A stretch of DNA of 64,000 bases, taken from the NCBI GenBank assembly GCA_028279705.1, contig JANQNF010000046.1:17019-81018 (forward strand), in the 5' to 3' direction. Shown one piece after another: positions 801 through 32,982 of the stretch. Within the stretch, counting starts at the first letter, position 1. Each line of letters starts with the position of its first letter. The position numbers and the translations under genes were made by a program. The notes under the pieces were generated by a model. It did no database searches, had not been told where the DNA came from, and saw nothing but the letters and a program-made list of their open reading frames with translations. The DNA comes from an archaeon (GTDB lineage Archaea > Aenigmatarchaeota > Aenigmatarchaeia > QMZP01 > JAFGSV01).

Positions 801-818
801 TTTGTGCCCCAAAGGTTA

Positions 819-6825: not shown

Positions 6826-6935
6826 AACTCAAAACCGTAATAATTTCTAAATTAAAGGTGTATAGAAGAGTTAAAAGTCTATGTTTAACCGTTGAAAGTC
6901 TGTAGATAAATATATTTCGTTCATTTCACCTGAAT

Positions 6936-7196: not shown

Positions 7197-7282
7197 ATTT
7201 AATTCGATTAAGAAACTATAAACTTACCATTAACGAACATATAGAGAACAAATAGAGTACATTTATAAATAATAGATATGAA

Positions 7283-7507: not shown

Positions 7508-7532
7508 CAAGTGAAACGTTTAATCCAAGTCA

Positions 7533-8402: not shown

Positions 8403-8649
8403 GAGTATGATTTGAGTTCGTGTTTAATAACATTACGATCTCGTTATATAGTCAATAAGCTAAACTAATATAGAAAGCGCTAGAACTACTACTACGCCTT
8501 TTACTTGAAACAAAAGCGATATCTTGCACCTCCTTTGAAACCTACCATTTATAAGTAGTTTTTGTCATTTTTTGTAAAAATAGCTACGTCAAAAGCGATA
8601 TCTATCAAACCTGTCTGGAAAATGGAAAACACTGAAAATTTGCGTATTT

Positions 8650-9888
8650 CTATCCTATGTACGGTGTCTCAACATTTTCAGGGATCTGTATTTGTGCGTA
8701 GAATAAATCAAGCAGCGCTAATATGGCTCTGGAATTGGCTTCTATCGCCTTTTCATTACTTTCGTGCATTTCATATATTTTATGTGATGTGATCGGTCTA
8801 TCCTTGACACTGTTAAACAGTTCTTGTATGACCACACTATTTCTTATTGCGTCCTTACCGATGGTTTCCAGTTCTTCGAGGTTAAGGCTATTGTCTATAG
8901 TTAACCACAATCCTTCTTCATCATAGACCTCTAATTTCTCTTTCCTTCTTAGGTAGTCCTTTGCCAGAGCATTCTTGACGAGCGCGCAATGAGAGCTTGA
9001 AATTCTGAATCTGTAACCCTTCCCAATCTTGAATATGCCCGGCTGACATTTCAGCTTGTTTTCGAGTTTCTTTATTATATAGATTATCCTCGAAGTGGCG
9101 CTGACTAGCGCTTTTGGGGCTGTATCAGCATACCAGCTATTTGGGAGGTAAATCACTATGGTTTTGTCATAGAGCATTATTGTCTTGACATCAGCAATAG
9201 ATATGCGCTGGCCATGTTGTATAGGTTCAAATGGCACTTTTGCTCTTTTCAGAAACACAACCCTTTTAATCCACCACTTCATGAGACTTTTCTTAATTTT
9301 CAACACGACACGACAGTCATGTAGTCTCACGGTGTCACTTTTCAAACATTTGGGATGGGTGTGCGCCATAGTCACACGGTGTTCTTTTTTCAACCTTGTT
9401 ATTTCAGCTTCTGACTGTTCAACACCGACTATTTCCCATGTTCCATAGCCAACATTTCTAACCAAATCCAGCTTCTTGAGAAGACCTGTATGGTATTTCA
9501 CCACATTTTCTTTCAGTGTATTTTTCTTCCAGAGTTCGGAAGGGGATCCGCCATTCTTTATGTGTTCATATACGGTAAAGGTAGAATTCGACGTTCTTTG
9601 TTTTGTTGGATGTTCGGAATTGGAATTCTCAGAGATGTATAGACCACGATTTGCGCTTGTTATATTGTTACAGCTTGAGATGAGTTTCTTGGTTTTCTCC
9701 TTAGAGAGGTGAAGTTGTTGCGACGCTGCTTTGAAAAAGTCACTTCTTCGGACAAATAAACCACGCTTTGTTGCTTTCTTGGACTCTTTTGGGATTGCAT
9801 CCAAAATCAAAGATACTATGTAGTCATTACCCGATGGTTCATTTAAGCTTCTACGTTGAAGACGTTTTATGGTGTTCGTTCCTAACAC
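8650..9888 (-). CDS. hypothetical protein (island cargo, 412 aa)
   Basis: Long ORF with no recognised catalytic motif. Confidence 0.5.
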   Translation of the reverse strand: MLGTNTIKRLQRRSLNEPSGNDYIVSLILDAIPKESKKATKRGLFVRRSDFFKAASQQLHLSKEKTKKLISSCNNITSANRGLYISENSNSEHPTKQRTSNSTFTVYEHIKNGGSPSELWKKNTLKENVVKYHTGLLKKLDLVRNVGYGTWEIVGVEQSEAEITRLKKEHRVTMAHTHPKCLKSDTVRLHDCRVVLKIKKSLMKWWIKRVVFLKRAKVPFEPIQHGQRISIADVKTIMLYDKTIVIYLPNSWYADTAPKALVSATSRIIYIIKKLENKLKCQPGIFKIGKGYRFRISSSHCALVKNALAKDYLRRKEKLEVYDEEGLWLTIDNSLNLEELETIGKDAIRNSVVIQELFNSVKDRPITSHKIYEMHESNEKAIEANSRAILALLDLFYAQIQIPENVETPYIG

Positions 9889-9963
9889 CTCCCTTGGCCG
9901 GGTCTTTATTGGCCCGGTCGAGTTCCCATTTTACGCAAATACGAATGATATCATCAATCTTCA

Positions 9964-10110
9964 CTAGATCCCCTCCCTCCATACACGGTCAATTATCCTT
10001 CTCATAGCTTCGCTACGTGAGGTGGCGCCTATGTTCGCTCTTACGTCATCCAGCTTCTTCTTGTCCATATCGGTTAACGCGAAAGTCGAGTTCTTCGTTA
10101 CTCTTGTCAT
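9964..10110 (-). CDS. small ribbon-helix-helix-like protein (48 aa, not in ORF track)
   Basis: Hand translation: MTRVTKNSTFALTDMDKKKLDDVRANIGATSRSEAMRRIIDRVWREGI; sits just upstream of the 412-aa gene. Confidence 0.3.
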   Translation of the reverse strand: MTRVTKNSTFALTDMDKKKLDDVRANIGATSRSEAMRRIIDRVWREGI

Positions 10111-10148
10111 GATTTTTATTCAAATCGAAAACTACATATTTCCTTTTT

Positions 10149-10697
10149 TTGCATCGATGCAAAATATTCAAAAAGCTGAATAGTACATTAAGTAGTATGT
10201 TAAGTGAAAAGAACCAAATGTTACTAATCGAATTCTATAAGTCGAAGGTTTCGAGTAAACCGGTTCCGGAGTTTATAGCCATGCGAAAAGAACTTGAGAA
10301 ATTGAATGTTTATCACGGAACTTCTTTATCCAATGTCCTTAAGAAATTCAAAGAAATGGGCCTTGTCGAAATCAAAACATGGAAGCAATTGAAAGATGAA
10401 ACGGGATTAAACAAACTGGTTGATAGAGATGCAGTCAGAAAGTCGAGAAAGGATGCCAGAAGTTTGAAAGTTCTAATGAAAAGGAAGTATAAAGAACATG
10501 TTGAAAAAAATAAGAAAATTTCAGAGGAAAACAAATTAGAAAATGAATACAAAAACGCTATCATAAAAGCCAATGAACTTATGGAAAACGTTTTCTATAT
10601 TCATGGTAATGATCCAAAAGAAAAGAACGTATTGTTGACAAAGAAAGGGATATCAGTAGCCGAAAAACTATGCGAACTTCAGAAGCTACTTGACTAG
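10149..10697 (+). CDS. hypothetical protein, possible DNA-binding
   Basis: 182 aa, Lys-rich and coiled-coil-like; overlaps the integrase stop. Confidence 0.4.
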   Translation: MHRCKIFKKLNSTLSSMLSEKNQMLLIEFYKSKVSSKPVPEFIAMRKELEKLNVYHGTSLSNVLKKFKEMGLVEIKTWKQLKDETGLNKLVDRDAVRKSRKDARSLKVLMKRKYKEHVEKNKKISEENKLENEYKNAIIKANELMENVFYIHGNDPKEKNVLLTKKGISVAEKLCELQKLLD

Positions 10698-11903
10698 GCT
10701 TTCACTTATCTCCTGATACTTTTCCGGGTATTCATTCTTGAAGAACTGCACAAACATGCTCATGTTATTTCGGAGTTCTTCCACTTCATACCTTAGGGAT
10801 CTCTCCTCACGCACCATTTTCATGCACGTTTGCTTGTCGAGGCCCATGCCACATTTGACGCATATTCTAGCGTCAATTCCGTTTATTTCCTGACATCTGG
10901 GACATCCCTTTGGTTTCAGTGCACTTTCTTTAGTTTCCTCTTTTTTACGCTTCCCGTGCGCTTCCAGAAATGCATCTGTAAGGTGTTCGCTGCTCAGATG
11001 GACGTACGTGTTGACCATCTTGCTGTCTCCAGACCATCCGAAATACATCCTGAGTTGCGGTTCCTTTAACTTACCTGCGAGTAACGTGGCCTGACTGTGC
11101 CTGAAATTGTGAGGGTTGACCTTCTTCACAATTCCGGACTTATCAGCGACTTTTCTCAGAATTTGGTTAATGATGTTGTAGCTTAGCGCTTTCTCATGGT
11201 TTGTCATTAGAGCGCAAAACACCTTCGCTTTTGGGTTCTTCCTTGCGGGGTGTTGCTCTATCCATCTTGTCAGGTATGGTATCGAGTTCATTATCGGGAT
11301 CTTTCTAAGGCCCGTCTTTCCGTTGAGTGTGACATGGGTTACATCACCGTTGGATTGGATGTCCTTTATCCTAAGGTTCATGAGTTCGCCTACTCTGCAT
11401 CCGGTGTCAAAGAGGAAAGCTATCATTGCTCTGTCTCTGAGGTTATTTGCGAATGACATCATCTTCACTACTTCCTCCTCTGTCAGCATGTCTTCGGAAC
11501 GCTTGTTGTTCCTGTTTGGAACCTTGGGTTTCATCCACTTAACGACCTCTGGAAAGTCCGGCCTCTCCGTTCCATATAGCCACGGGAAGAAGCAGTTCTT
11601 GATGATTATCTGGTATGTGTACTTAGTCCATTCCTTGTAGTCGTCGCGTTCCAAGAGTTTCCTCACATATCCTTGGATGTCTGCCTTGCACATCTCTTTG
11701 AATGGTTTCCCTACGTCATTGCTGAGTGGACTTAACGCGTCTATATACCTGTCTATTCGTCTTCTGCCTATTCCTGTCGCAACGGAATAGCTTACAAAAT
11801 CGATTAAGGTAAGCACGTTACCTTCGTGCTTCACTCTACTTTTTATCACATCTTCGTGTGATTTCATATTGTGAACACCTCCGTTTGTCCTTTTATTTAC
11901 CAC
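10686..11903 (-). CDS. int: tyrosine recombinase/integrase with C-terminal zinc ribbon
   Basis: Catalytic-domain motifs HNFRHSQATLL and Tyr in NTYVHLS; C-terminal CPRCQ...CVKCG; N-terminus 26 nt from the tRNA-Ser 3' end. Confidence 0.85.
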   Translation of the reverse strand: MVNKRTNGGVHNMKSHEDVIKSRVKHEGNVLTLIDFVSYSVATGIGRRRIDRYIDALSPLSNDVGKPFKEMCKADIQGYVRKLLERDDYKEWTKYTYQIIIKNCFFPWLYGTERPDFPEVVKWMKPKVPNRNNKRSEDMLTEEEVVKMMSFANNLRDRAMIAFLFDTGCRVGELMNLRIKDIQSNGDVTHVTLNGKTGLRKIPIMNSIPYLTRWIEQHPARKNPKAKVFCALMTNHEKALSYNIINQILRKVADKSGIVKKVNPHNFRHSQATLLAGKLKEPQLRMYFGWSGDSKMVNTYVHLSSEHLTDAFLEAHGKRKKEETKESALKPKGCPRCQEINGIDARICVKCGMGLDKQTCMKMVREERSLRYEVEELRNNMSMFVQFFKNEYPEKYQEISESLVK

Positions 11904-11929
11904 GGTAGGCGTTCACACTTCTTTCCTAG

Positions 11930-12012
11930 CGCCGAGGATGGGATTTGAACCCATAAGTCCAGAGGACACTAGATTTCCAGTCTAGCGCGTTACCAGATTC
12001 TGCCACCTCGGC
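11930..12012 (-). tRNA. tRNA-Ser (anticodon GGA), no encoded CCA
   Basis: Hand-folded: acceptor GCCGAGG/CCTCGGC, anticodon stem CTAGA/TCTAG with loop CUGGAAA, long variable arm, T-loop GGTTCAAATCC. Confidence 0.8.
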
Positions 12013-16975: not shown

Positions 16976-17545
16976 CTAGCCCTCAGCCTTTGCAGCTTTC
17001 TTTTTTTGCCTTGCCTTGTTTTCCTTCAGCCAGTCAAGAGTCCCAAGGTTTGGCTGCCTTGCAGTAAGTCCTATCTTGTAGTCGCTTCCTGCAACTGAAA
17101 CTGAAATTATCCTCGCTCGCACGACATCGCCTTCCTTCATCCTCTGCTTGCTTTCCTTGCCCATGAAGATCGCGTTCTTCCTGTCGAAGTTCACAAAGTC
17201 GTCCATAAGCTGGCTTACGTGCACCATGCCGTCAACAGGTCCAAGTCTTAGGAAAACACCGAATTCGGTCACGTCTATTATCTCACCTTCAACGATCTCG
17301 TGCTGGTTCGGCTTGTATACAAGGACTTCAAATTCCACAGGGTAGTGGATAGAGCCGTCGCCTGCATATATCCTGCCCTCGCCGGTGTTCTTCACGTTTG
17401 TGACAACCAAAACGACGCCAAGCCTCTTGTCTATGACACCGTCCCACCTGTCCATGAGGCTCTGCTTTACTGCTTCCTCGAGTCCCAGTTCGAACTTTGA
17501 AGGCTGGACCTTTATTTCATCTTCAACTTGGATTATCTTGTACAT
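16976..17545 (-). CDS. rpoE: DNA-directed RNA polymerase subunit E' (Rpo7)
   Basis: N-terminal Rpb7-like domain and S1 domain (GDVVRARIISVS); conserved rpoE-spt4 operon. Confidence 0.85.
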   Translation of the reverse strand: MYKIIQVEDEIKVQPSKFELGLEEAVKQSLMDRWDGVIDKRLGVVLVVTNVKNTGEGRIYAGDGSIHYPVEFEVLVYKPNQHEIVEGEIIDVTEFGVFLRLGPVDGMVHVSQLMDDFVNFDRKNAIFMGKESKQRMKEGDVVRARIISVSVAGSDYKIGLTARQPNLGTLDWLKENKARQKKKAAKAEG

Positions 17546-17748: not shown

Positions 17749-18798
17749 ATGTCGTACCCGGAGATGAGTATAATACGGGACATACGCGTCCTGACCGAGA
17801 AATTCATACCAAACAGGATACTCCACAGGACAGGCCAGCTTGAAGCAATAAGAGACGACATAAAGCCTCTTCTTGAGGGCAGCGTCCCGCGCCACGTATT
17901 CATACACGGAAATCCTGGCACGGGAAAGACGTGCATGGCAAGGTATGTCGCAGGGGAGCTTGAATCATACAGTTCCGACATAGTCCAAAGCTACACAAAC
18001 TGCTGGGAGAACCCAAGCAGGTTCAGGATACTCTACAACATTGCAAAGGACGTTAGCAGCGCACCGATAATACACAGGAAAGGCACGCCCACAGACGAAA
18101 TACTCGAGATGATAAAAAGAAGCCTCGAAGGCAAGCACTGCGTCGTCATACTCGACGAAGTTGACAAGATAGAGGACGACCGCGTCCTCTATGATCTCAT
18201 AACGCTGCAGAACGTTTGCATGCTCATGATAGCCAATTCCTCAACTGCCCTCTACAACGTCGACTCGAGGATACGAAGCAGGCTGGCATCTTCGGACAAC
18301 ATAGAATTCCGTCCATATAGCAGCAGTGAAATAATCGACATATTAAGCGACAGGTCAGAATGGGGGCTCATACCAGGGGTCATAACTGGACAGCAGATAG
18401 AAATGATTGCCGCAAGCGTGTCTGGAGATTGCCGTGCTGCAATAGATATCATGAGGGTTGTTTCAGAAGAGGCTGAACGAAGCGAACATGAAAAGATAAC
18501 AGACGACATGATAGAAAGATCTCTCCCAAGGATCGAGATGTTCAAAAAGGAATTGAGCATGGGAGCACTCAATCCCCACCAGAAGCTCATAATGGAGATA
18601 GTCACCGGCGCAGGCGGTACGATAGATTCAGGAGAACTCTTCAGGAAACTTTCGGAACTTTCCGCTAGCAAAGGCATGGAAAGCATAGTGGACAGGACGT
18701 TTCGAAACTACACTAACAAGCTCGTCAAGTACTCCTTTTTGAATTCTTCCGGTGACGGCCGCTGGAGGACTTTCGCCCTTCCAAAAAAGCAGTTCTAG
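17749..18798 (+). CDS. orc1: Orc1/Cdc6 replication initiator
   Basis: Walker A GNPGTGKT, Walker B VVILDEVD, C-terminal winged helix. Confidence 0.9.
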   Translation: MSYPEMSIIRDIRVLTEKFIPNRILHRTGQLEAIRDDIKPLLEGSVPRHVFIHGNPGTGKTCMARYVAGELESYSSDIVQSYTNCWENPSRFRILYNIAKDVSSAPIIHRKGTPTDEILEMIKRSLEGKHCVVILDEVDKIEDDRVLYDLITLQNVCMLMIANSSTALYNVDSRIRSRLASSDNIEFRPYSSSEIIDILSDRSEWGLIPGVITGQQIEMIAASVSGDCRAAIDIMRVVSEEAERSEHEKITDDMIERSLPRIEMFKKELSMGALNPHQKLIMEIVTGAGGTIDSGELFRKLSELSASKGMESIVDRTFRNYTNKLVKYSFLNSSGDGRWRTFALPKKQF

Positions 18799-18859: not shown

Positions 18860-19828
18860 GTGAGCAAGACTCAAAATGGTGAAAAAATGCAATATCCTGC
18901 AATTGCCCAAAGGTTCCTCCAAGGCGTCAATGACGGGAGGGGATACCTCGAAATATCCCCTTCCGAAGACTGCCGTCTGAGTGACTGCGTAAATGACGCA
19001 AGATCGCTTGAAATCGAGCTGAAATCAAGAGGTTTCAGCAAAAAGACTGTGAAGTCCTACCTTTACTATAACGCAGACTTTCTCAGGTTCGTTGGAAAGA
19101 GCGCAGGTGAGGCTACGGAAGAGGACGTCAAGAACTACATGGCATTCCTCATCGAGAACAGGAGCGCGTCGACTGCAAGCCTCGCCCTCGCAGCGATACG
19201 GTTTTTTTCAAAAAGAGTGCTGATGAAGGACTTTGAGCATATAAATAACCCAAAACGCGAGACTAAGCTTCCAGACATACTCACAAGGGACGAGGTCAGA
19301 AAGATGATAGAAATGACATCAAACATCAAGCACAAGATACTCCTTGAACTTCTTTACGGGTGTGGATTGAGGGTTTCTGAGGTAGTAAACCTCAGAATCA
19401 CTGACGTTAGCGTGCACGAACGTGTCATACACGTTCGTAATGGTAAAGGCGGGAAAGACAGGATGGTGCCGCTTCCAAGACTTACTGCACAGAAGCTTGA
19501 ATTCTTCATGAAAGTAAGGGACGAGAACAATCCCTATCTCATACCATCCGCAAGGGGAGGTAAGATAACCACAAAGACCGTCTATCTCGTGGTAAAACAA
19601 TCTGCTGAGAGAGCCAGGGTAAGAAAGAACGTCCACCCGCACACGCTGAGGCATTCGTTCGCTACACACCTTCTCGAAAACGGACATGACATCAGGGTCA
19701 TTCAAAAGCTTCTTGGTCACGCTGACATAAAGACGACCCAGATATACACTCACATCTCAAGAGATTTCCTAAGGAATGTCACAAGCCCGCTTGACAGCAC
19801 GTTGTACGAAGGGGGCGCTTTGAGATGA
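18860..19828 (+). CDS. xerA: tyrosine recombinase XerA
   Basis: RHS..THLLENGHDIRVIQKLLGH..TQIYTH catalytic motifs with tyrosine. Confidence 0.88.
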   Translation: MSKTQNGEKMQYPAIAQRFLQGVNDGRGYLEISPSEDCRLSDCVNDARSLEIELKSRGFSKKTVKSYLYYNADFLRFVGKSAGEATEEDVKNYMAFLIENRSASTASLALAAIRFFSKRVLMKDFEHINNPKRETKLPDILTRDEVRKMIEMTSNIKHKILLELLYGCGLRVSEVVNLRITDVSVHERVIHVRNGKGGKDRMVPLPRLTAQKLEFFMKVRDENNPYLIPSARGGKITTKTVYLVVKQSAERARVRKNVHPHTLRHSFATHLLENGHDIRVIQKLLGHADIKTTQIYTHISRDFLRNVTSPLDSTLYEGGALR

Positions 19829-20380
19829 TATCTTTATTTTCAAGACTAGCTGAGAGGGTAAAGTACGGTGAATACTCAAAAACACCCGAATTCGCCATAT
19901 CAAGAAGCTACCGGAAATGGGACAATATGCTCAGAAACCTGAATGCACTTCCACAAGAAGCGCATTAACGGAATTTTACTTCCGATAACGCATGTTATAT
20001 TCAATCGAGAAAAGGCAAACCTTAAATTTGGTGAAAACCAATTATTGATTAATGTGTGTGAATTTACCAGTTTGGGCCGAACCGATAGTTTTATTCGCGG
20101 CTCCGTTGATAGTATTGGTTTTGTATATTGTCCTTACAAGAACTGGCACGGTTAAGCTGGAAGATAGGAAAAAATTGAAGATATTCAGTATAATATTTGC
20201 GATTATACTTACTTGGGTATCTTTCTCTTTTAGTTTCATGTGGCTTTGTTGATACTCCTGCCTTTTCTCGACTTCGTCGCTTCGCTCCGACCAAAGGGAA
20301 CATAACATACGCTAACAGGCTTTGGTTATTCCTGCTCTGCCCAAATTCCGATGTGTATCCCTCTGTCCATAAGCGGGCTT

Positions 20381-20920
20381 CTAAAGAGTACATTTCTTCA
20401 TGAAATCATTGTCCATCAACACGGACCGGTCGCATGTTTGCCTCAGGTGCCATGAATGGCCCGATTTGAAGTGTGCATTTTCAATGTGTTTGCCAAAACT
20501 CTGCGCGGCCTTCACTGCGGGCACAAAGTCTCCGTCGCCGCTTACGAGTATAGCTGTATCATAAGAATTACTTTGTGCCAGCATGACCATGTCCACTGCT
20601 ATGTGGATATCATCACCCTTGACCGCATAATGAGTTTTCCCATCCACCTTGCGCTTTTGCAGCCTTACTAATACCAGTTTGAAATTCGGTATGTTCCTCA
20701 GCCCGGAAAAGAACTTCTGCTGCTTCTTGTAGCTTTCCTTGTCGTGGCTCATGTCCAGCGGTGCGTTGTAATAATATGTCCTTATAAGTTTCCTGTCTTT
20801 TCCGCAGAGCTTTTGTGATATTTTTTCAAAATCGATTTTCATGTCACCTAGATCCTTTCTCATGCAGTGGTAGAAGTTGCTCCCGTCTATGAATATGCAA
20901 ACACGCTCTGTATTGGCCAT
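20381..20920 (-). CDS. NYN-domain (LabA-like) putative nuclease
   Basis: VCIFIDGSNF, DIHIAVDMV, VSGDGDFVPAV motifs; start placed at MANTERV. Confidence 0.7.
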   Translation of the reverse strand: MANTERVCIFIDGSNFYHCMRKDLGDMKIDFEKISQKLCGKDRKLIRTYYYNAPLDMSHDKESYKKQQKFFSGLRNIPNFKLVLVRLQKRKVDGKTHYAVKGDDIHIAVDMVMLAQSNSYDTAILVSGDGDFVPAVKAAQSFGKHIENAHFKSGHSWHLRQTCDRSVLMDNDFMKKCTL

Positions 20921-21071
20921 AATATGAATGTTTGATTCGAGAAATAAATATGAACCTGCCCTTACCGAAGTAATGGCAGGGAGTATATGATACATAGTAG
21001 TCATGTTTCATTTATAAATGTTCTGAAGCCCACTTCGTTCATCGGAACTTCTGTTAGCTGTTTAGTTATAT

Positions 21072-21494
21072 TCAATCAGATTTCGCCTTTCCAACTTTCC
21101 TAAGCATATCTATATTGGTTAATATTTCAACTTTCTCTTGTTCCTTGAAATGAGGGTCATGTGTCCATATACCCTCTGAGTCAGTTGCAAGGCAGGCGGC
21201 TATATATGGAATATCTTTTGGGTCTTTTATCGAATGTTTGATTTTTGCTATCAAATCAAGGTATTTTGTTTGTGGAATAATTGATATGTTCTCGAAAATT
21301 AGAAGCAATAAAACCTCGAATTCTTCATTTGTTAACTGTGCGGCCTTAGTAACCCTCTTTTCATGCTTTCTGATTTCAGATATTATATTATCTGGAGCGA
21401 AGAATTCGAATAACGGGTCAAATAATATTTCTCTTGTTGTTCCTTTCTTTATCATTGAAGCGAGAACTCTGTTTGCATCTATAACTATTCTCAT
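21072..21494 (-). CDS. vapC: PIN-domain toxin VapC
   Basis: IVIDAN N-terminal acidic motif; DIPYIAAC..IWTHDPHF. Confidence 0.8.
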   Translation of the reverse strand: MRIVIDANRVLASMIKKGTTREILFDPLFEFFAPDNIISEIRKHEKRVTKAAQLTNEEFEVLLLLIFENISIIPQTKYLDLIAKIKHSIKDPKDIPYIAACLATDSEGIWTHDPHFKEQEKVEILTNIDMLRKVGKAKSD

Positions 21495-21727
21495 TTAACC
21501 AGACCGTGACTTTTAGCTATCCCTTTGTTTATTTCTTTTCCTACTTCCAATGCGTCTTTCTCGCTCAACTTGCTCTTTGATAGTATATTTTCCATGAGTT
21601 CTAATTTTCTCGCCTGCTCCCACATAGCTTGTCTTGCAACTTCACTCCATTTGATCTCTTTATGTTTTTGCATCATTTCGTGCAAATCCTGTGGAACGGC
21701 AAGAGTCATATTAGTCATATTTACCAC
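21491..21727 (-). CDS. vapB: VapB-like antitoxin
   Basis: 78 aa, 4-nt overlap with vapC start. Confidence 0.55.
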   Translation of the reverse strand: MVNMTNMTLAVPQDLHEMMQKHKEIKWSEVARQAMWEQARKLELMENILSKSKLSEKDALEVGKEINKGIAKSHGLVK

Positions 21728-21796
21728 CTAAGTAATTTATGTATATTATTTATTTTTACTTATTTATATATTTAACGGCGAAATCTGACTCTTCGC

Positions 21797-21900
21797 CACT
21801 ACGTGGCTTGTCTTCCAGAGAATATAACATGCAATATCAGGCTTCCTGCTGGAAGTCTCAAATGTTGTGCATACACAACATTTCAGATATCGCTATAGTT
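21797..21900 (+). repeat. structured repeat copy 1 (two hairpins)
   Basis: GGCTTCCTGCTGGAAGTC hairpin, then AAATGTTGTG-cata-CACAACATTT hairpin, then ttcagatatcgctatagtt. Confidence 0.6.
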
Positions 21901-22399
21901 AGATGTAATTGAGAAAACTGCTGTGGGTCTGATAAGCCTTTCCGCAACACGGTGCACCAAAACCAAGTTCCTTTTTCATTTGTTCAGGACTCAGACTAAT
22001 AATATCAGAAACTGTGTAATCAATTTCTCTATCTTTCCAAGACTGTGCCAATAGAATCCTTGCTCTGTTTATTCCTGAAACACCACTATAATCATTGAGG
22101 TTCTTTTCACCATGAGAAATCGATTTTATTGCATTGGATAGCTCCCCATACGTCCTAATTTTATTGATATTGAGAACCTGCTTTTGCCCATTCCAATACT
22201 TTGGATTCCCATCTTTTTTGTATTCACCCGTCATGTTCACCCAATGTGTCTTTTTGCCTGTGTATACACTATGATTAAATTTTGCTTTCCTTCTTTTACT
22301 GGTTTTAGCTTTGTCGATTAGAAAATCCCAGTAAAGTTGGTTAAATGTGTCTGCTTCTCTTGCCTTCTTAAGACCTTTCATAACTCTACAATAAAGCAA
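21899..22399 (-). CDS. hypothetical protein flanked by repeat copies 1 and 2
   Basis: 166 aa, no motif recognised. Confidence 0.45.
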   Translation of the reverse strand: MLYCRVMKGLKKAREADTFNQLYWDFLIDKAKTSKRRKAKFNHSVYTGKKTHWVNMTGEYKKDGNPKYWNGQKQVLNINKIRTYGELSNAIKSISHGEKNLNDYSGVSGINRARILLAQSWKDREIDYTVSDIISLSPEQMKKELGFGAPCCGKAYQTHSSFLNYI

Positions 22400-22431
22400 A
22401 ATTTTAAAAAGGCAGTTTTCTCAACTTCCTC

Positions 22432-22536
22432 GACTACGTCTCGGACCCTCAGGGACATCTAACATGCAATATCAGGCTTCCAGCAGGAAGCCTCAAATAT
22501 CGTCCACAGATGATACTTCAGATATCGCCATAGTTG
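22432..22536 (+). repeat. structured repeat copy 2
   Basis: Same flanks as copy 1 (gactacgt...taacatgcaatatcaggcttcc...ctcaaat...ttcagatatcgccatagtt); hairpin 2 stem is AAATATCGTC/GATGATACTT with three compensatory pair changes versus copy 1. Confidence 0.6.
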
Positions 22537-22562
22537 TATCTAATTCGGCTGGCACATAATAA

Positions 22563-22835
22563 TTACTTCATTGTGTTGATAATTTTCTTTGCGTTTTCGC
22601 TAGTTAGGGGAATTGTGTCGACGACGCCATCGTTTAAATCTAATATCAAGTTTGTTTCCAGGTTTTTAATGGTCGGTGCTTTCGATGACACCACGCTCGC
22701 ATTTTTCGGCTTCAGGTAATCTGAGTTTGTATTCTCATTATTTAAATGATCAGCGAATATCATTCCACCATAAAATCCAAGACCGCCAACCACACCACTT
22801 GCTATATACTTAATATAATTACCAAACTTTGACAT
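22563..22835 (-). CDS. small membrane-anchored protein
   Basis: 90 aa, N-terminal TM (IASGVVGGLGFYGGMIFA). Confidence 0.35.
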   Translation of the reverse strand: MSKFGNYIKYIASGVVGGLGFYGGMIFADHLNNENTNSDYLKPKNASVVSSKAPTIKNLETNLILDLNDGVVDTIPLTSENAKKIINTMK

Positions 22836-22958
22836 ATTCTACAATAAGGTAGAGTTAACTTTTTAAACCTTCCTTCATACAGACGCCAGCCGAACTCCGG
22901 CACTTCCTACCCACCTGGCTCGTGAGTGCCTATACACGACATGAGATTATTAGGATTT

Positions 22959-23020
22959 GACTACGCACCTTACGCTGCCAAATCTCAAACTGTCGCAGAG
23001 CGACAGCTTCTAATAATCCT
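22959..23020 (+). repeat. degenerate repeat copy 3 (hairpin CTGTCGC-agag-GCGACAG)
   Basis: Shares gactacg, ctcaaa + perfect hairpin + cttctaataatcc with copies 1 and 2; lacks the first hairpin. Confidence 0.35.
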
Positions 23021-23111
23021 GAGTTATACGAAATTTCAAACCCCGCTCCAGAATTTAGATATTTTTATATAGACTCATTTTTAATTATTAGAGAAAGGTA
23101 AGAAAGGTATT

Positions 23112-23573
23112 ATGAAAATTAACTATAAAAAAGCGATAATTTTTGGAACCATTGTGATACTATTGCAAATGGTGTTTGGCAACCTGTTATACATAAATCC
23201 CATTGCAATGGAAATCAACAAGCAGTTCGAAGGCCACCCCTCAATAAAATCCTTTGATTTCATAGGGGGAATGGGTAATTGGCTTCTGCTGACACTTGTT
23301 TTTAGTATTTTTCTCATGGTTCTCTGGATCGTATTGTATACATTCCTGTACAAGGCTATTCCCGGGGAAGGTTGGAAAAAAGGGTTATTTTTTGGTCTTG
23401 CACTGTCCTTCATAAAGGCAGTCCCAGAAGCATTCAACCAATGGATGATCTTTGTTTATCCCAGTGAGCTGATTATATTACAACTTGTTAATACATTTCT
23501 AGGTTTAGCAGTTTTTGGAATATTGCTAGGATTTTTCTATAAAAAATTCAATGTGATCAATTATGAAAAATGA
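23112..23573 (+). CDS. 4-TM membrane protein
   Basis: 153 aa hydrophobic ORF; overlaps start of the next gene. Confidence 0.5.
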   Translation: MKINYKKAIIFGTIVILLQMVFGNLLYINPIAMEINKQFEGHPSIKSFDFIGGMGNWLLLTLVFSIFLMVLWIVLYTFLYKAIPGEGWKKGLFFGLALSFIKAVPEAFNQWMIFVYPSELIILQLVNTFLGLAVFGILLGFFYKKFNVINYEK

Positions 23574-24009
23574 AAATGAAGACATGATCGCCTATTGTGG
23601 CCTGTGCTGCTTGGACTGTCACGGCTTTCAACAAAAAATACCAGACCTTGCAAGGGACCTGAGAAAAGAGCTAAGAGCTTCAAAATACAGAAAATTCGCG
23701 GAATTCCTTGCAACTACTACATTTGGAAAGGGCTTTAAAGAGTACGACAAGTGTTACGAAGTTTTGGGGAATATGGTAAAGTTCAGGTGCCACAAAGGAT
23801 GCCGGAATGGGGGAGGAAACCCTTTCTGTAAAATCAGGAAATGCTGCCAAAAGAAGAAATATGAAGGTTGCTGGGAATGTGATATCTTTGAAGAATGCGA
23901 GAAACTTGCTTTTTTGGAACCAGTCCATGAAAAAGGGCATGTAAAAAACTTAAAAATAGTCAAAAATAAAGGGAAAGCCGAATTCTTAAAATGTAAAAGA
24001 CATTGGTAG
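23563..24009 (+). CDS. Cys-rich DUF3795-like protein
   Basis: YCGLCCLDCHGF, CHKGCRNGGGNPFCKIRKCC, CWECDIFEEC; paralogue of 16321..16734. Confidence 0.55.
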   Translation: MKNENEDMIAYCGLCCLDCHGFQQKIPDLARDLRKELRASKYRKFAEFLATTTFGKGFKEYDKCYEVLGNMVKFRCHKGCRNGGGNPFCKIRKCCQKKKYEGCWECDIFEECEKLAFLEPVHEKGHVKNLKIVKNKGKAEFLKCKRHW

Positions 24010-24088
24010 TGGCTAGTTCTCGGGAGCGACAGCGGAAGAATAACGGTTAAAAAACTATCTGCCTATACAATCCTTATAGGTGAATTGA

Positions 24089-24574
24089 ATGGGAGAACTG
24101 ATAATACCACAGGGGCTGGTTGGAAAGAATCCGGGTATCGAAAATGGAATCTATCAAGATTCATATGTCAATGAAATGAACGGGATTTATCCAATAAAAG
24201 AAATAGTAGGCACACCAAATGAACATGAATACAAAAGCATGTTCATACGTAAGTTGCGTTCACTATTCAATGAAGCGATTCCCAATGCTGAAGAATGTGC
24301 CGTTTTATTGCCAATTTATATTTCCAGTGCAAAAAATGGTTCATGGGTGCCAGGTAAACTTGAAACAGATGCCATAAAGTCTGCTACGGGTATGAATCCA
24401 GAGGAATATGTTGAATATCTCATTAGTGATAACAACAAACGCCCTTATCGTGGTACAACACAATTACATAACGCAACAAAAAGAGGACTACTGATCAATA
24501 CTGTTTACGAAGGAGATTTCTTTTCTATACTAACCGAGCAATTTGCCAAACATTTGCAATCAAACAAAACGTAG
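24089..24574 (+). CDS. hypothetical protein
   Basis: 161-aa ORF. Confidence 0.4.
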   Translation: MGELIIPQGLVGKNPGIENGIYQDSYVNEMNGIYPIKEIVGTPNEHEYKSMFIRKLRSLFNEAIPNAEECAVLLPIYISSAKNGSWVPGKLETDAIKSATGMNPEEYVEYLISDNNKRPYRGTTQLHNATKRGLLINTVYEGDFFSILTEQFAKHLQSNKT

Positions 24575-24724
24575 CCCTCCCCCGAAAATTGCATCTAACA
24601 TCTCGATTAAGAGAAGTTGATTTTTTGAGACATCCCACAAAAATTATTTTTTGTTCTTACTCATTACGATAGGCTTTCCTCAATATTCAAATTTCAGCAT
24701 TTTATAATTTACTTATTTAGAAAA

Positions 24725-25207
24725 CTATACAAGCATTGATATTTTCTTTGCAAATGCCTGGATGTTATTTTTTGCACTATCAAAAAGTCTTTCGCAATCA
24801 TCGTAGTTCACTTCATCGAACAACTTATCTTTTAAGATATAATCAAATCTATTTGGATCTGGAGACATTGTGTATGCATGTTTTGCTTTACTTAATTTAT
24901 CATGATAGCTAATTTGCGTCTTGCGGTTCATCCCCGATAGCCAAATTTCGTATTCAAATTTATTATGCGTAAAAGCGATAACAAACTTAAGGCCTTTTGA
25001 TTGCAGTTCATCATTAGTGAATTGGAAATAGGAATAATCCATGTTGTTTTCAACAATATTCCCTGTGAACTTATATTCAGATAAGTTACCAGCCAAATAA
25101 GTCCTAAAACCTCTAAAAAACTTAACAAATTCCTGGTAACCTTTTTGCAGGTTTGTAGACTGGAGAATTTTTTTATATTCGCTGATGTAATTCGAATTAA
25201 TTTTCAT
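24725..25207 (-). CDS. hypothetical protein
   Basis: 160-aa ORF. Confidence 0.4.
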   Translation of the reverse strand: MKINSNYISEYKKILQSTNLQKGYQEFVKFFRGFRTYLAGNLSEYKFTGNIVENNMDYSYFQFTNDELQSKGLKFVIAFTHNKFEYEIWLSGMNRKTQISYHDKLSKAKHAYTMSPDPNRFDYILKDKLFDEVNYDDCERLFDSAKNNIQAFAKKISMLV

Positions 25208-25396
25208 AATATTATCTTTAAGATTGAAGTGTATTTAAAATTTGTTTTCTGAAAGCATATCTTCTTTACTTCAAGAAAATTTTTTGAATCGCGTATAACT
25301 CTGATAATCTCATGTTATTGTGAGCTGCTTACTGGGCGGCGAAGTTTTCGGATGTAGGTGTTTTGTTTAAAAAAATTATTATCATAAAATTAACTT

Positions 25397-25622
25397 TATG
25401 AGCAAATCCGCATTTTTCACTAAAAGAAGATATTGAGGAAATTGCTGCAAAATTGCCGGGAGAATACAAATCAAAGTTGTATAAAATTGCAAGTAAAATA
25501 TTCATGGGTGCATATATGACAGGTGACCTGATTGGAACCAGGGGTGACAAAGGAGATAGAACGTTTTTTTCCAGAAAAATGGGAGAAATATCGGAACAAT
25601 GTGAAAATTCTGACGAGTTTTA
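25397..25622 (+). pseudogene. frameshifted small gene remnant
   Basis: MSKSAFFTKRRY-stop, then the +1 frame continues EDIEEIAAKLPGEYKSKLYKIASKIFMGAYMTGDLIGTRGDKGDRTFFSRKMGEISEQCENSDEF. Confidence 0.25.
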
Positions 25623-25694
25623 ATAAGTACGCATCCGAAAATTTACGATAACATCAGGGTTAACCGATTCTACCAGTTATCTTCTAATTTGTGC

Positions 25695-25760
25695 GAACGG
25701 AGTGAGTCGGTTATTGCATGTTAGATGAGTCCTTTAGGACCAAGCGAAGTGTAGAGTTCG
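25695..25760 (-). repeat. repeat family copy A (shares catctaacatgcaata core with copies 1 and 2, reverse orientation)
   Basis: Reverse complement of 25703-25718 is ctcatctaacatgcaata; small hairpin GTCC-ttta-GGAC. Confidence 0.4.
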
Positions 25761-25778
25761 GGGCCGTTGTTGTGACAT

Positions 25779-26030
25779 CTAAACAGGATCATAATTTTTG
25801 ATCGGTGTGGATATTTGAGTCAAAGAAACTATGTCACCTGTTTTTATGTTGTATAAGAATGGTCCTGACCTAGACTGATTATAACCAATTCCAAGATGTT
25901 CTAAATTGTTAGTTGTATCCACTTTTACCGAATAGTCATCATGACCATTCTTTATCAGAGGACCTACAACAAATTCCGAACCACCGGAAATGTTAACCAT
26001 TACCCTTTTATCAACCATACCATCGTTCAT
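25779..26030 (-). CDS. small hypothetical protein flanked by repeat copies A and B
   Basis: 83-aa ORF. Confidence 0.3.
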   Translation of the reverse strand: MNDGMVDKRVMVNISGGSEFVVGPLIKNGHDDYSVKVDTTNNLEHLGIGYNQSRSGPFLYNIKTGDIVSLTQISTPIKNYDPV

Positions 26031-26154
26031 ATTATCACTATTTAATAGTTAAATAACTTTTATAAACTTATCGTCGACCTGAATTTCTTATAACTAAAAA
26101 GCTAACAGATGTTACCGCTATCTGCGGTAATTTGGGCGGAACAGGAATAAACAA

Positions 26155-26215
26155 AGTCTGTTAGCGCATGTTACACATCCGTTAGGTCGGTGTGAGCGAA
26201 GAGGGCGGAGAAGTA
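26155..26215 (-). repeat. repeat family copy B (degenerate)
   Basis: gcatgttacacatccgttagg...agcgaagagggcgg aligns with copy A (gcatgtta, tccNttagg, agcgaag). Confidence 0.3.
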
Positions 26216-26257
26216 ATGCACCAAAAGGTATAAAAAACTACTAAACTTCTACATCTC

Positions 26258-26653
26258 ATGGGAGATTGTCCATACTGTAAAGAAGAGTATCAAAGCTCTG
26301 AACGGAACATATTAGAAAACGAATCGTGGATTGCTAATTTTGACGGACATCCAGTAAACCCCGGACACATGAAAATAATTTCAAAAAGACACGTTGTTTC
26401 AATCAGTGAACTCAATAACGAAGAATTGATTTCAATGAGGGAAATGATGAAAAAAGTCGAGTCACTAGGGGAAGAACAATTTAAAACAGATGAATATAAT
26501 TGGGGTTTCAACAAAGGAAAGAATGCCGGTCAAACAAAATTCCACCTACACATACATTATATACCAAGATATGAGGGAGACGTGGAAGACCCGATTGGCG
26601 GGGTAAGAAACATTATCCCCGAAAAAGGAAATTACCTCAAATTAAAAAAGTAA
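26258..26653 (+). CDS. HIT-family (histidine triad) nucleotide hydrolase
   Basis: N-terminal CPYC, histidine triad HLHIHYIP. Confidence 0.8.
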   Translation: MGDCPYCKEEYQSSERNILENESWIANFDGHPVNPGHMKIISKRHVVSISELNNEELISMREMMKKVESLGEEQFKTDEYNWGFNKGKNAGQTKFHLHIHYIPRYEGDVEDPIGGVRNIIPEKGNYLKLKK

Positions 26654-26819
26654 TATTTGGTACATTGTTGCGTATAACATCGGTTTATTAGAAGTTGCCT
26701 CTGTGCGGCAATTTGAGATTCAGCAGCTGAAAAATGCGTAGCTGAATCCTAATAATATTATGCTATATTCAATAATTTGAGGGGCTGAAGGTAAAAGGGA
26801 GCAATTTTATAAAAATAAT

Positions 26820-27620
26820 TTATCCTAACCACTTATTTTCAATTTCTTTAAGTTTACCACTCCTTTTCATTTCTCTTAGGATTTTATTAATCTCATCCAT
26901 CAAAGCATTATTGCCAAGTCTTGTTGCAATACCATAAAATTCTTGTGTTAACGGCTCTCCAACAAGTTTCAAATCGTCAGGGTGTGCTTTAACAGCTCCA
27001 ACTCCAGCTACATAATCTCCGACAACAGCTTCTACTGTATCATTCAAAAGACCTGCTATCGCTTCCTCTCCGTTGACAAAAAGATATAATTGATCTTTTT
27101 CAACATATTCTAATGCAGCTTTTTCACAAGTTGTTCCACCTATAGTTCCTACCATCCTATCTCTCAAATCTTCAGGGAATTCTATCTGATCATGATTCTT
27201 TTTTACAACTATTACCTGACCCCCGATGAAATATGGAACACTGAATAATATTTCTTCAGACCTTTCAGGTGTGATGGTCACAGAAGAGATTACAACATCA
27301 ACACTATTCGATTTGATTTTTGTAAAAAGTTCTTTCCAGTCACTTTGTTTTATTTCTACTTCCACTCCCAGCCCATTACTTACCTCGTTTATTATTTCCA
27401 TATCTACTCCCATGAAATTTCCTGATTCATCGGTAAATGTCATCGGGTAATAATCACCAGTTGTTCCAACTATCAGCTTTCCCCTTTCCTGTACATCCAG
27501 AAGCGATGTGTCAGTTATTTCCACTACCTGATCATCCTGCACGGTCTGTGCACATCCGGAAATTAAGAGTAACAGTAAGAAAACCGATAAAATCGCGAAT
27601 CCATTTTTCATGAATTTCAC
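26820..27620 (-). CDS. family-3 solute-binding lipoprotein (amino-acid ABC type)
   Basis: Lipobox LLLLISGCAQ; ends KWLG; paralogue of 61176..62024. Confidence 0.75.
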   Translation of the reverse strand: MKFMKNGFAILSVFLLLLLISGCAQTVQDDQVVEITDTSLLDVQERGKLIVGTTGDYYPMTFTDESGNFMGVDMEIINEVSNGLGVEVEIKQSDWKELFTKIKSNSVDVVISSVTITPERSEEILFSVPYFIGGQVIVVKKNHDQIEFPEDLRDRMVGTIGGTTCEKAALEYVEKDQLYLFVNGEEAIAGLLNDTVEAVVGDYVAGVGAVKAHPDDLKLVGEPLTQEFYGIATRLGNNALMDEINKILREMKRSGKLKEIENKWLG

Positions 27621-29396: not shown

Positions 29397-30366
29397 TACA
29401 CTCCACCTTTGGCTTTTTTAGATAAGTGTTTGCATGATGCATGAACTTGTCAAGTGTCCCTCTAGGTATCCTCGCACCAGCAGCTCCCGGGTGGCCGCCA
29501 CCGGAGCCGCCAACGGCATCTGCACACGTGTCCATCATGTCGTTTAAAAGGACATCGCTTTTTCTCTTCCTCACAGTGATGTCTATGTGGTCGCCTCTTT
29601 CCAGTATGAACATGCCAACCTCGGTGTCACCGACGGTTGCAGAAAAAAGCGCTGCAGGTCCCCTGAAACCGAAGTTTGGCATGTTCTGTACCACGCCAAT
29701 TTTTCCGATCTTCTCTGCATGTGCCTTTACATATTCGTAAAGCTCAAACTCCCTGGTAACGGCAAGCTTTGCTGACCTCACAAGGCCGGGAACGTCTGAT
29801 GGATTCTTGCCAAGGGACAGCGTCTCCACGATGTCCCTTTTGGCATCGTAGCTTCCAAACTGTTTGCTCTTTATACCCAGTATGAGCGTTGAAACCTCAA
29901 AATAAAGCGCCCTCCTGTCCCAGTTGAACATCCTCTCGTGCACAAACTCCGTATCATCCTCATAGTCGCCTATGGCACCGTAAAGTGCTATCCAGATCCT
30001 TTCCTTTGGTATGTCATTCTGGTAATGCCTGTAAACAAGCTCTGACGCGCTCACGTTCAGCTTGTGAATGTATTCGATATCAGAGAAATCCTCCCTGGTT
30101 ATGTTGTCGGGTATCCTGTGGTGGTCGAAGTATGTTATCTGTGTCTTCCTTGACTTGTTCTTCAAAAGCTTCACTATCTTCTGTGCGTCCTTTCTTGTGA
30201 TGGCAATGTCTGCTATGATTATCTTGTCGGCGTTCGTCTGCGAAAGATCACTGAGAAAGGAAACAGGCTTTGTGAAGAACACTTCAGCGTCAGGGTACTT
30301 GGCCTTTGCTATCGCACCGGAGCACATGCCATCGCAGTCGGCGTGAGTGAGAATAACTGTTTTCAT
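29371..30366 (-). CDS. DHH/DHHA1 phosphoesterase (NrnA-like)
   Basis: HADCDGMCSGAI, FDHHRIP, GGGHPGAAGA. Confidence 0.8.
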   Translation of the reverse strand: MKTVILTHADCDGMCSGAIAKAKYPDAEVFFTKPVSFLSDLSQTNADKIIIADIAITRKDAQKIVKLLKNKSRKTQITYFDHHRIPDNITREDFSDIEYIHKLNVSASELVYRHYQNDIPKERIWIALYGAIGDYEDDTEFVHERMFNWDRRALYFEVSTLILGIKSKQFGSYDAKRDIVETLSLGKNPSDVPGLVRSAKLAVTREFELYEYVKAHAEKIGKIGVVQNMPNFGFRGPAALFSATVGDTEVGMFILERGDHIDITVRKRKSDVLLNDMMDTCADAVGGSGGGHPGAAGARIPRGTLDKFMHHANTYLKKPKVECSEKETSHA

Positions 30367-30503
30367 AACTTATCTTAGTCGTTTTCAAATAAATATGAAA
30401 TATTTACCGGCTGAGACGGTATGTGAATGAACTTTATCTACAAACAATTTTGGGACACTCGATATGGTTAATTATTTAAACAGGTGATTACAAAAATAAA
30501 CAC

Positions 30504-32807: not shown

Positions 32808-32905
32808 GACGTAATAATGTAGCTAAAATTAAAGTATGTTACCCCAAGAATAAAACGGGACTATTCTTTCAGATGCGACAGACAACTTGTCACACACAGT
32901 CGGCG

Positions 32906-32982
32906 TGGGTAAGAATTACTGTTTTCATAACTTATCTTAGTTGTTTTCAAATAAATATGAAATAATTCCAGGTGTGACAGTA
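32906..32982. repeat. about 77-bp duplicate of the DHH gene promoter plus its first 10 codons (30345..30420), now upstream of the PQQ gene
   Basis: cagtcggcgtgggtaagaattactgttttcataacttatcttagttgttttcaaataaatatgaaata versus cagtcggcgtgagtgagaataactgttttcataacttatcttagtcgttttcaaataaatatgaaata. Confidence 0.7.

Follow-up and report, generated by a model that had tools for sequence, protein, structure and literature searches.

Eight attC-like sites at a single archaeal locus

We analysed a 64,000-nucleotide stretch of archaeal DNA (GenBank assembly GCA_028279705.1, contig JANQNF010000046.1, positions 17,019 to 81,018 of the forward strand), referred to below as the window, in which all positions are counted from its first letter. 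A reading made from the letters and open reading frames (ORFs) alone, the sequence-only reading, had noticed here a family of repeats with conserved flanks and variable hairpins, and had likened them to attC recombination sites, structured small RNAs or miniature mobile elements. The repeats belong to a cluster of eight attC-like sites at 20.3–26.8 kb of the window, in a DPANN-type archaeal chromosome. That the window is archaeal shows in its genes, which encode Orc1/Cdc6 (17749–18798), an Rpb7-like protein (16976–17545) and, in the Logan annotation, Spt4. Directly after cdc6, 2 kb upstream of site c1, comes the gene of a tyrosine recombinase. In the list below, R'', L'', L' and R' are the boxes of an attC site, and bit scores are those of R1, a covariance model made from six copies.

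18860–19828, plus strand: tyrosine recombinase of the archaeal XerA type, 322 amino acids (aa), with Pfam Phage_integrase and SAM-like domains
19978–20005, plus strand: attI-like (or dif-like) core site, ACTTCCGATAA CGCATG TTATATTCAAT; kept in the related contig L002; weak covariance-model match
20300–20353, plus strand: split attC-like site, 5' half (R'', L'', hairpin 1, CCCAAAT and the 5' arm of hairpin 2); aligns to cB
21040–21071, plus strand: split attC-like site, 3' half (3' arm of hairpin 2, ACTTC, L', spacer and R' GTTATAT)
21822–21904, plus strand: attC-like site c1 (earlier copy 1); 79 bits, fold z-score -4.6
22457–22539, plus strand: attC-like site c2 (earlier copy 2); 82.6 bits
22934–23029, plus strand: attC-like site c3 (earlier copy 3), with a degenerate R'', inverted homologue of c6; 68.4 bits, inverted repeat
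about 24589–24700, minus strand: degenerate attC-like site cD, with an intact 3' arm and a decayed 5' part
25646–25726, minus strand: attC-like site cA, which holds the reverse copy of a 16-mer; 68.1 bits
26088–26176, minus strand: attC-like site cB; 80.3 bits, fold z-score -4.0
26672–26768, minus strand: attC-like site c6, the last before the core genes, homologue of c3; 68.9 bits, alignment

When R1 was run over the whole 64 kb, its own copies scored 68–83 bits (E-values of 1e-12 to 1e-15), and the sole extra beyond the cluster copies was a weak match at 19948–20003. Since R1 finds nothing comparable elsewhere in the 64 kb, the repeat family is a local cluster that stands far above chance. 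Several copies have fold z-scores of -4 to -5.

The two same-strand copies on which the sequence-only reading was built are borne out: c1 and c2 are 81% identical over 89 nt, and their second hairpins (AAATGTTGTG-CATA-CACAACATTT in c1, AAATATCGTC-CACA-GATGATACTT in c2) differ by the three compensatory substitutions reported (G:C to A:T, T:A to C:G and G:C to C:G), besides which there are one G·T pair and one mismatch. The third copy, c3, does keep the layout with a different perfect hairpin, CTGTCGC-AGA-GCGACAG, the loop being AGA rather than agag. A 16-mer of the family does recur on the reverse strand, at 25712–25727 and not at 25703–25718, and what had been taken for a degenerate relative at about 26155–26215 is the full copy cB. 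Site c6, the decayed site cD and the split site had been missed. In the intact 3' arm of cD one reads AACTTC TCTTAAT CGAGAT GTTAGAT GCAAT. Sites c3 and c6 differ in both hairpins, each time with compensatory changes: GATTTG/CAAATC has become GATTCAGC/GCTGAATC, and CTGTCGC/GCGACAG has become TTGCC/GGCAA.

The two halves of the split site, once joined, fold into the family structure. Its hairpin-2 loop holds an insert of about 680 nt containing an NYN-domain gene (20381–21004, minus strand) and flanked by the arms of another inverted repeat of 7 bp (GGGCTTC/GAAGCCC). Perhaps a gene has invaded a recombination site, or perhaps the site can accommodate one in its variable arm; homologues of the NYN gene are ordinary cassettes in the arrays of two related contigs, L035 and L048 (L-numbers denote contigs compared with the window).

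Close copy pairs (c1 and c2 at 81%, c3 and c6, cB and the split copy) are what miniature transposable elements or the remnants of local tandem duplication might leave behind. The copies are, however, confined to a 7-kb cluster of the 64 kb rather than dispersed, they have neither target-site duplications nor terminal inverted repeats beyond the R boxes, as miniature inverted-repeat transposable elements or repetitive extragenic palindromes would, the genes between them are mutually unrelated, and the same architecture recurs with different sequences in dozens of unrelated contigs. We give this explanation next to no credence. A CRISPR array and simple tandem duplication were also considered and dropped: the units are 80–100 nt long and irregularly spaced, with unrelated genes between them. 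Between the DUF7000 gene and a small ORF there is also a hairpin consisting of R boxes only (25296–25323, GTATAAC-N14-GTTATTG), which may be a site remnant.

Site architecture and covariation of the L box

All six full copies of the window align as R''-spacer-L''-hairpin 1-CAAAT-hairpin 2-(A)CTTC-L'-spacer-R'. On the top strand, R'' ends in TAAC and is followed by a 4-nt spacer, the 8-nt L'', hairpin 1, C(C/T)CAAAT, hairpin 2, an (A)ACTTC-like linker, L', a second spacer and R', which reads GTTRRRY and has ..AAT after it. The R box is RYYYAAC/GTTRRRY, with AAC/GTT invariant or nearly so, and the right (R') arm is conserved over about 11 nt; the L box is an 8-bp pairing of ATTAnnnG with CnnnTAAT. 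The spacer measures 4 nt on the R'' side (5 in c3 and c6) and 6–7 nt on the R' side (5–6 in c3 and c6). The fold is a three-way junction of hairpin 1, CCAAAT, hairpin 2 and AACTTC, whose linkers are conserved and single-stranded. Most sites are 80–100 nt long, and they have the make-up that defines an integron attC site: R'' and R' with paired L'' and L' within 50–150 nt. The minus strand had been tried as the top strand of c1–c3, going by ORF direction, and was dropped after three checks: the published archaeal attC sites, which have a 5-nt spacer on the R'' side, the directions of the cassette ORFs and the orientation of the attI-like site.

The sequence-only reading had proposed a covariance-model search as a check, and this search returned more copies in the window, in genomes and in metagenomes. 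A second model, R2, which includes cross-genome members, finds 30 sites in the window and the contigs of a genome collection (one genome per species), spread over 15 or more loci of recombinase relatives. Metagenome contigs were picked by the DNA site pattern alone, not by recombinase, which gave at least 120; R2 confirms 148 sites in 79 of the 100 longest. In all, the covariance-model search found about 180 further sites in DPANN genomes and metagenomes. The same pattern has 21 matches in a viral collection, none of them confirmed by the model; these are therefore chance matches, and they double as a false-positive control for the pattern. A rule-based attC scan had recovered only three copies among chance matches, and covariance models were used in its place.

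We measured covariation on 116 metagenome sites that had been kept out of model building. Their L box is 96.7% paired, and its covariation score is 0.369, as against 0.129 for shuffles (of 500, none reached 0.369) and no more than 0.078 with the pairing partners shifted; each of the three central pairs occurs as 3–5 standard pair types. G·T occupies just 8 of the 928 L-box cells. RNA helices usually tolerate G·U, and the near-absence of wobble pairs, together with the presence of genes on either strand relative to the site, argues for pairing of DNA rather than for an RNA element.

This bears on the small-RNA suggestion, by which the repeats would be a structured RNA family (a 3' untranslated region, terminator or small RNA) that merely accompanies small genes. 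The sites are intergenic, their folds are stable (z-scores of -4 to -5 in several copies) and a further conserved module upstream of R'' could be transcribed. Set against this, a search of 19500–27500 with Rfam 15 gave no match at an E-value of 1 or better, a tRNA scan of the region also gave nothing relevant, G·T is scarce, the largest ORF lies with the site in 53 cassettes and antisense to it in 18, horizontally transferred units end exactly at GTT, and the sites occur together with a recombinase and an attI-like site. An RNA family is in our judgement very improbable, if a shade less so than miniature elements.

No extrahelical base is present in the L box of the 30 or of the 116 sites, and the sole asymmetry of the fold is that of the spacer, 4 nt against 6–7 nt. 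Site anatomy, covariation, the organisation of the arrays, the GTT boundaries in relatives and the adjoining recombinase and attI-like site all support the attC-like interpretation raised in the sequence-only reading, and we hold with little doubt that the repeats are cassette-bounding sites of attC type.

The 'gactacgt' flank noticed earlier (21797–21821 and 22432–22456) is part of a loosely conserved module 5' of R'', which comprises a CTTCG-rich stretch and a small hairpin with a ACGTTGCACT or CGCCTTGCAGGC loop. In many loci the module is seen in the 70 nt 5' of R'' (for instance L030 9607–9660, L137, L173 and L189), and CTTCGG, CTTCGC and TTGCAC are each found in 45–54 of 165 flanks upstream of R''. 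Its YTTGCAS motif also recurs in hairpin-1 loops. The module may bind an accessory factor or act as a terminator.

A XerA-type recombinase and an attI-like site beside the array

Contrary to the earlier statement that no integrase or transposase lies nearby, the window encodes two tyrosine recombinases, the one at 18860–19828 and a second integrase at 10686–11903. The former matches NCBIfam XerA_Arch (NF040815) at 260.9 bits, over a cutoff of 220, and so qualifies as a XerA equivalog; against the integron integrase model TIGR02249 it reaches 224 bits, below the cutoff of 265, with the match in two pieces. Its best matches among solved structures are XerA (4a8e and 5hxy), with the Vibrio IntI4 next. 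An alignment with the integron integrases (IntIs) of Aliivibrio, Shewanella, Treponema and Cellvibrio shows that the IntI-specific insertions of about 30 and 11 aa are missing from this protein and its relatives. Six DPANN recombinases, that of the window included, score 229–261 bits with XerA_Arch and 196–224 bits with TIGR02249, and bacterial IntIs do the opposite, passing the latter model and failing the former. The relatives come from Pace-, Woese-, Nano- and Aenigmatarchaeota and are 43–54% identical to the window protein (71% in L002) in the one-genome-per-species contigs.

The association of this recombinase with the sites holds from both directions. Of 26 recombinase-bearing contigs other than the window with enough flanking sequence, most have their array upstream of such a gene and divergent from it, on the far side of an attI-like site. 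Among the recombinase-selected archaeal loci with at least 2 kb upstream of the gene, sites lie upstream and on the opposite strand in 13 of 18, and nearly every site has this placement. In the sample selected by attC, nine contigs carry a recombinase, always of this type (36–49% identity, no insertion), and the same upstream, divergent geometry is seen in all 8 contigs that have both a recombinase and a model-confirmed site. A recombinase with IntI insertions was found neither in the 38 recombinase-selected archaeal contigs nor among the nine recombinases of the 120 attC-selected ones.

Just upstream of their recombinase gene, 17 genome-collection and 7 metagenome contigs have a conserved core site on the array's strand, with the consensus ..TTnnGATAW, 5–6 nt, GTTAnnnnCAAT; in L030 the 57 nt closest to the gene are coding. 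The window and L002 (17749–20005 corresponding to 3859–6130) share the order cdc6/orc1, recombinase, 47-aa ORF (19825–19968) and attI-like site, with protein identities of 74% and 71%; they are conserved through the core site, downstream of the recombinase gene, and unrelated beyond it. In both, this platform is rearranged in that recombinase and attI-like site point into the array, not away from it. The 13 nt from R' onward, GTTATATTCAATC, are identical at the attI-like site and at the end of the first (split) site of the window, and in L035 the attI-like site and the first attC agree in all 18 nt counted from GTT. The core site is a conserved candidate for an attI adjoining an integrase gene. 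The order with cdc6 puts the cassette platform of the window beside a likely replication origin; in other DPANN loci no cdc6 stands next to the recombinase.

On the strength of synteny and site similarity we infer that the neighbouring XerA-like enzyme is likely to be the recombinase of these sites. Our favoured explanation for the locus as a whole, which we regard as probable, is that the repeats are the attC-type sites of an integron-like cassette array in a DPANN-type archaeal chromosome, and that this enzyme works them.

Two other arrangements of enzyme and sites deserve weighing. The first is an ordinary cluster of attC sites lacking integrases (CALIN), on which a canonical IntI encoded elsewhere or in another cell acts in trans, the XerA being a dimer resolvase and the 'attI-like' site a dif where arrays happen to gather. 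The recombinase does pass the XerA equivalog model, the R and L boxes of the family resemble those of canonical attCs, and no two recombinase-selected archaeal loci share an assembly, which points to a single copy in each genome; moreover, most arrays in the survey of Ghaly et al. 2022 are CALINs, and archaeal attCs there were recombined by the bacterial IntI1 (PMC9668308). It is less easily squared with the geometry of recombinase, attI-like site and array, which stays constant across distant lineages, with the match between the right arms of the attI-like site and of the attCs (identical to the first attC in L035 and the window), with the missing bulge, which a canonical IntI would read, or with the failure to find an IntI-insertion recombinase in either contig sample. 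We think such a cluster unlikely.

The second is a Xer/dif system working on double-stranded DNA, with cassettes stacked at dif in the manner of integrative mobile elements exploiting Xer (IMEX) and inverted repeats that serve, for example, termination or regulation. The 3' arm of every site (ACTTCnnnTAAT-N6-GTTAnnnnCAAT) is indeed laid out like the attI-like site, with arms of 11 nt on either side of a spacer of roughly 6 nt, and archaeal dif has an 11-6-11 layout and is cut at the spacer ends (PMC8371274). Such a system leaves no role for the conserved asymmetric spacer of 4x6 nt or for the single-stranded junction motifs, though, and if duplex sites in direct repeat were fully active, the array would be deleted; the free covariation of L'' with L' across 50–130 nt, with almost no wobble, argues that the two arms must pair. 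We rate duplex recombination somewhat lower still than the CALIN.

Array organisation and cassette mobility in relatives

In the metagenomes the sites form arrays of the kind expected for the probable reading, that of an integron-like array. All sites lie on one strand in each of the 35 multi-site contigs, their spacing has a median of 1005 nt, and 94% of the distances are below 4 kb; the relatives thus show the co-oriented attCs less than 4 kb apart, with short ORFs between, by which integrons are recognised. In 76 cassettes the largest ORF runs with the site in 53 and antisense in 18, and 5 have no ORF. That about a quarter are antisense suggests cassette-borne promoters rather than a common promoter (Pc).

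The clearest view of a cassette as a mobile unit bounded at G|TT comes from relatives rather than from the window. A 2.5-kb block of three ORFs with their own site is common to L035 (6961–9451) and L048 (269–2843) at 84–88% identity; its distance from the recombinase is 0.8 kb in one genome and 7.4 kb in the other. The homology begins right after the GATGTT of the preceding site, which differs between the two genomes, and ends right after the GATGTT of the block's own site. Also in L035, three identical sites part ways immediately past GTT. Such boundaries are how integron cassettes exchanged at G|TT behave. L035 further contains, beside its attI-like site, two identical 213-nt cassettes without ORFs in tandem (9439–9750), whose attC is present a third time at 5816–5914; this looks like the repeated re-insertion of an empty cassette.

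In 19 of the 38 archaeal recombinase loci the contig ends less than 1 kb upstream of the gene. Breaks are to be expected if a variable array lies there. Many metagenome sites are likewise within 100 nt of a contig end, and breaks tend to fall at arrays (L004–L034, L083–L162), which suggests strain-level variation of the cassettes.

Cassettes of the window

The genes between the window's repeats are unrelated to one another, and are typical cassette cargo (toxin-antitoxin, NYN, HIT, DUFs and small ORFs):

20042–20308, minus strand: ORF of 88 aa in the first cassette (ORF list); no Pfam family passes the cutoff
20381–21004, minus strand: NYN-domain gene (Pfam NYN) inside the hairpin-2 loop of the split site
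21072–21727, minus strand: toxin-antitoxin cassette of VapC (PIN; Pfam PIN_2) and a VapB-like protein (match below the curated cutoff; RHH_12 in the Logan annotation)
21899–22399, minus strand: ORF of 166 aa without a family match, for which the TTA of G|TTAGAT serves as stop codon
22563–22835, minus strand: cassette ORF of 90 aa (ORF list)
23112–24574, plus strand: three ORFs (153 aa; 148 aa, DUF3795; 161 aa) separating the two blocks of sites
24725–25207, minus strand: DUF7000 cassette ORF
25779–26030, minus strand: cassette ORF of 83 aa (ORF list)
26258–26653, plus strand: HIT-family cassette ORF (family match)

The small minus-strand ORFs of 166 and 83 aa are bracketed by copies, as had been pointed out; this is the general cassette arrangement and not special to these two. 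Sites are spaced by 0.5–1.1 kb and form two opposed blocks, with the split site and c1–c3 on the plus strand, and cD, cA, cB and c6 on the minus strand. The plus-strand block runs cassette 1 (88-aa ORF and split site), VapBC with c1, the 166-aa ORF with c2 and the 90-aa ORF with c3. Since the inverted homologues c3 and c6 turn their R' ends towards each other across 23024–26677, this segment is perhaps invertible, which would explain why the window has sites on two strands; a single inversion of it would, going by the map, align every site but c6. An exact search of public assemblies for the recombinase, with either start codon, gave no match. Cassette-protein look-ups gave matches only in the SRR20820740 population, where a pair of Logan contigs ends within the array at the DUF7000 gene, one on each side of it (window about 24870–25185).

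Comparison with known recombination systems

The single-stranded DNA of CTX phage folds into a Xer site with an unpaired centre, and this folded attP, used by XerCD, is the closest mechanistic analogue of the archaeal sites. The gene xerS adjoins its difSL site, as the window-type recombinase gene adjoins its own. With Xer/dif systems and the IMEX and CTX elements the archaeal loci share a XerA-family enzyme and a core site in which a spacer of roughly 6 nt separates two 11-nt arms whose inner ends read ..TAA/TTA..; they differ in having dozens of sites per locus as opposed to a single dif, an attI-like site of weak symmetry, and gene cassettes that probably carry promoters instead of phage or island genomes.

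Likeness to bacterial integrons is more extensive. Common to both are the RYYYAAC/GTTRRRY R box, the ATTAA../..TTAAT L box, the unpaired central spacer, sites of 70–130 nt, co-oriented arrays with a spacing of about 1 kb, the cassette boundary at G|TT, a candidate attI-type site between recombinase gene and array (divergent in most relatives), and a cargo of toxin-antitoxin genes and many small genes of unknown function. On the other hand, the archaeal recombinase is without the IntI insertions and is classed as XerA by its scores, extrahelical bases are missing from the L box, and the spacer is 4x6 nt and not 5x6. The variable region is a three-way junction with CCAAAT and AACTTC, the tip of a canonical attC being unconserved; the right arm is conserved over about 11 nt, and a quarter of the cassettes are antisense.

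Archaeal integrons were described by Ghaly et al. 2022 (Sci Adv, PMC9668308) in 75 metagenome-assembled genomes, mostly as CALINs, with six IntIs that all have the extra domain. Their attC arrays occur in archaeal chromosomes, those of Nanoarchaeota and Aenigmatarchaeota among them, and toxin-antitoxin cassettes are common. As in the window, putative attIs lie immediately downstream of intI, and the top strands of the attCs read RYYYAAC, 5-nt spacer, L''...L', 5–8-nt spacer, GTTRRRY. Unlike ours, the nine archaeal attCs tested in that study are all classical single hairpins with spacer-L''/L'-spacer arms; among the canonical attCs of its primer list, those that we inspected in detail have the ATT-C-AA bulge in the L box, and a Xer-type integrase is not proposed there. 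None of the seven array-bearing assemblies that we checked is in the tables of that survey, which is based on IntegronFinder.

The split site of the window recalls insertions that target attC, such as group IIC-attC introns and IS1111-attC elements, in that an attC is interrupted in its variable region by a gene-bearing insert. It differs from them in that the insert has no reverse transcriptase or transposase, and sits in the hairpin-2 loop with a 7-bp inverted repeat around it.

A possible mechanism and its standing

If the XerA-like enzyme does work these sites, a cassette would begin with the TT of one GTT core and close with the G of its own site, with one gene or a few in between, probably under promoters of their own. 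The substrate, the folding strand and the catalyst are inferred ones: a single-stranded site would fold into the three-way junction, and its base stem would rebuild a Xer-type core site, presenting the R box (..TAAC with GTTA..) and the L box around an unpaired 4x6-nt spacer. The recombinase would bind the R and L boxes, cut at G|TT and exchange one strand. Exchange with the attI-like site would lead to capture, and exchange with another attC to excision or shuffling; resolution might be by replication, as in bacterial integrons and CTX-phage/XerCD integration.

Integrons are defined by an integrase whose extra domain reads the flipped-out bases of a folded attC, and in the structure of VchIntIA with VCR DNA (PDB 2A3V) the extra domain contacts these bases. 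The absence of the IntI domain and that of the L-box bulge, which the sites have lost or never had, therefore fit each other. The archaeal system does not belong to the integron family as now defined, because we looked for the IntI domain and for extrahelical bases and found neither. Archaeal integrons as such are already known; what appears new is the arrangement of a Xer-type recombinase with bulge-less attCs, which would work like an integron, and our literature search turned up no description of a Xer-type recombinase tied to attC-like arrays or of a Xer-type integrase with bulge-less attCs.

We put forward more tentatively, at somewhat below even chances, that these loci are 'Xer-integrons', in which a single XerA of the housekeeping type, with no IntI domain, captures and shuffles promoter-bearing cassettes through a dif/attI-like site by its own gene, using bulge-less, three-way-junction attCs. 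Such a system could be ancestral to the bacterial integron integrases, which would have gained the extra domain and bulged attCs later, or an independent invention.

Several observations weigh against an integron-like array worked by the neighbouring enzyme. The link between enzyme and array is drawn from synteny and site likeness. The recombinase scores as an ordinary archaeal XerA and may be a housekeeping chromosome-dimer resolvase. Integrons reportedly cannot function without the IntI-specific domain (PMC8138268), and an enzyme that lacks it may be unable to process folded sites; as the genomes are incomplete, a canonical IntI could also be encoded in another part of them. In duplex form, the 3' arm of every attC makes up a complete core site, which leaves room for ordinary double-strand recombination, and the attI-like core, which fits the 11-6-11 layout, has weak dyad symmetry (6 of 11 arm positions). 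Within the window, the sites are in both orientations, unlike those of all 35 multi-site metagenome arrays, and the cassette ORFs of the plus-strand block are all antisense to their sites. Finally, with a degenerate R'' in both c3 and c6 and with cD in decay, part of the window array may be fossil or inactive.

Should the link between enzyme and sites prove functional, surveys that rely on the IntI domain, and possibly the standard attC model too, undercount archaeal platforms for gene capture. The supposed need for the extra domain would become directly testable through a natural counter-example, and a concrete intermediate between Xer/dif dimer resolution and integrons would be at hand, which bears on the origin of integrons. 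The frequent breaks beside the recombinase gene in assemblies of these small genomes would then have an explanation as well.

Other features of the window

The second tyrosine integrase (10686–11903, minus strand) abuts a tRNA-Ser gene (11929–12012, minus strand). Upstream of this integrase, in the same region, lie a KAP-family NTPase gene (2179–5406) and several genes without a family match; 1–12012 of the window is probably an element integrated at the tRNA gene.

A 76-nt direct repeat of 91% identity (30335–30410 and 32897–32972) spans the beginning of two minus-strand genes of unrelated kinds, one for a DHH phosphoesterase and one for a PQQ-like beta-propeller protein, together with the sequence upstream of each. 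It has the look of a promoter and 5' end that were duplicated.

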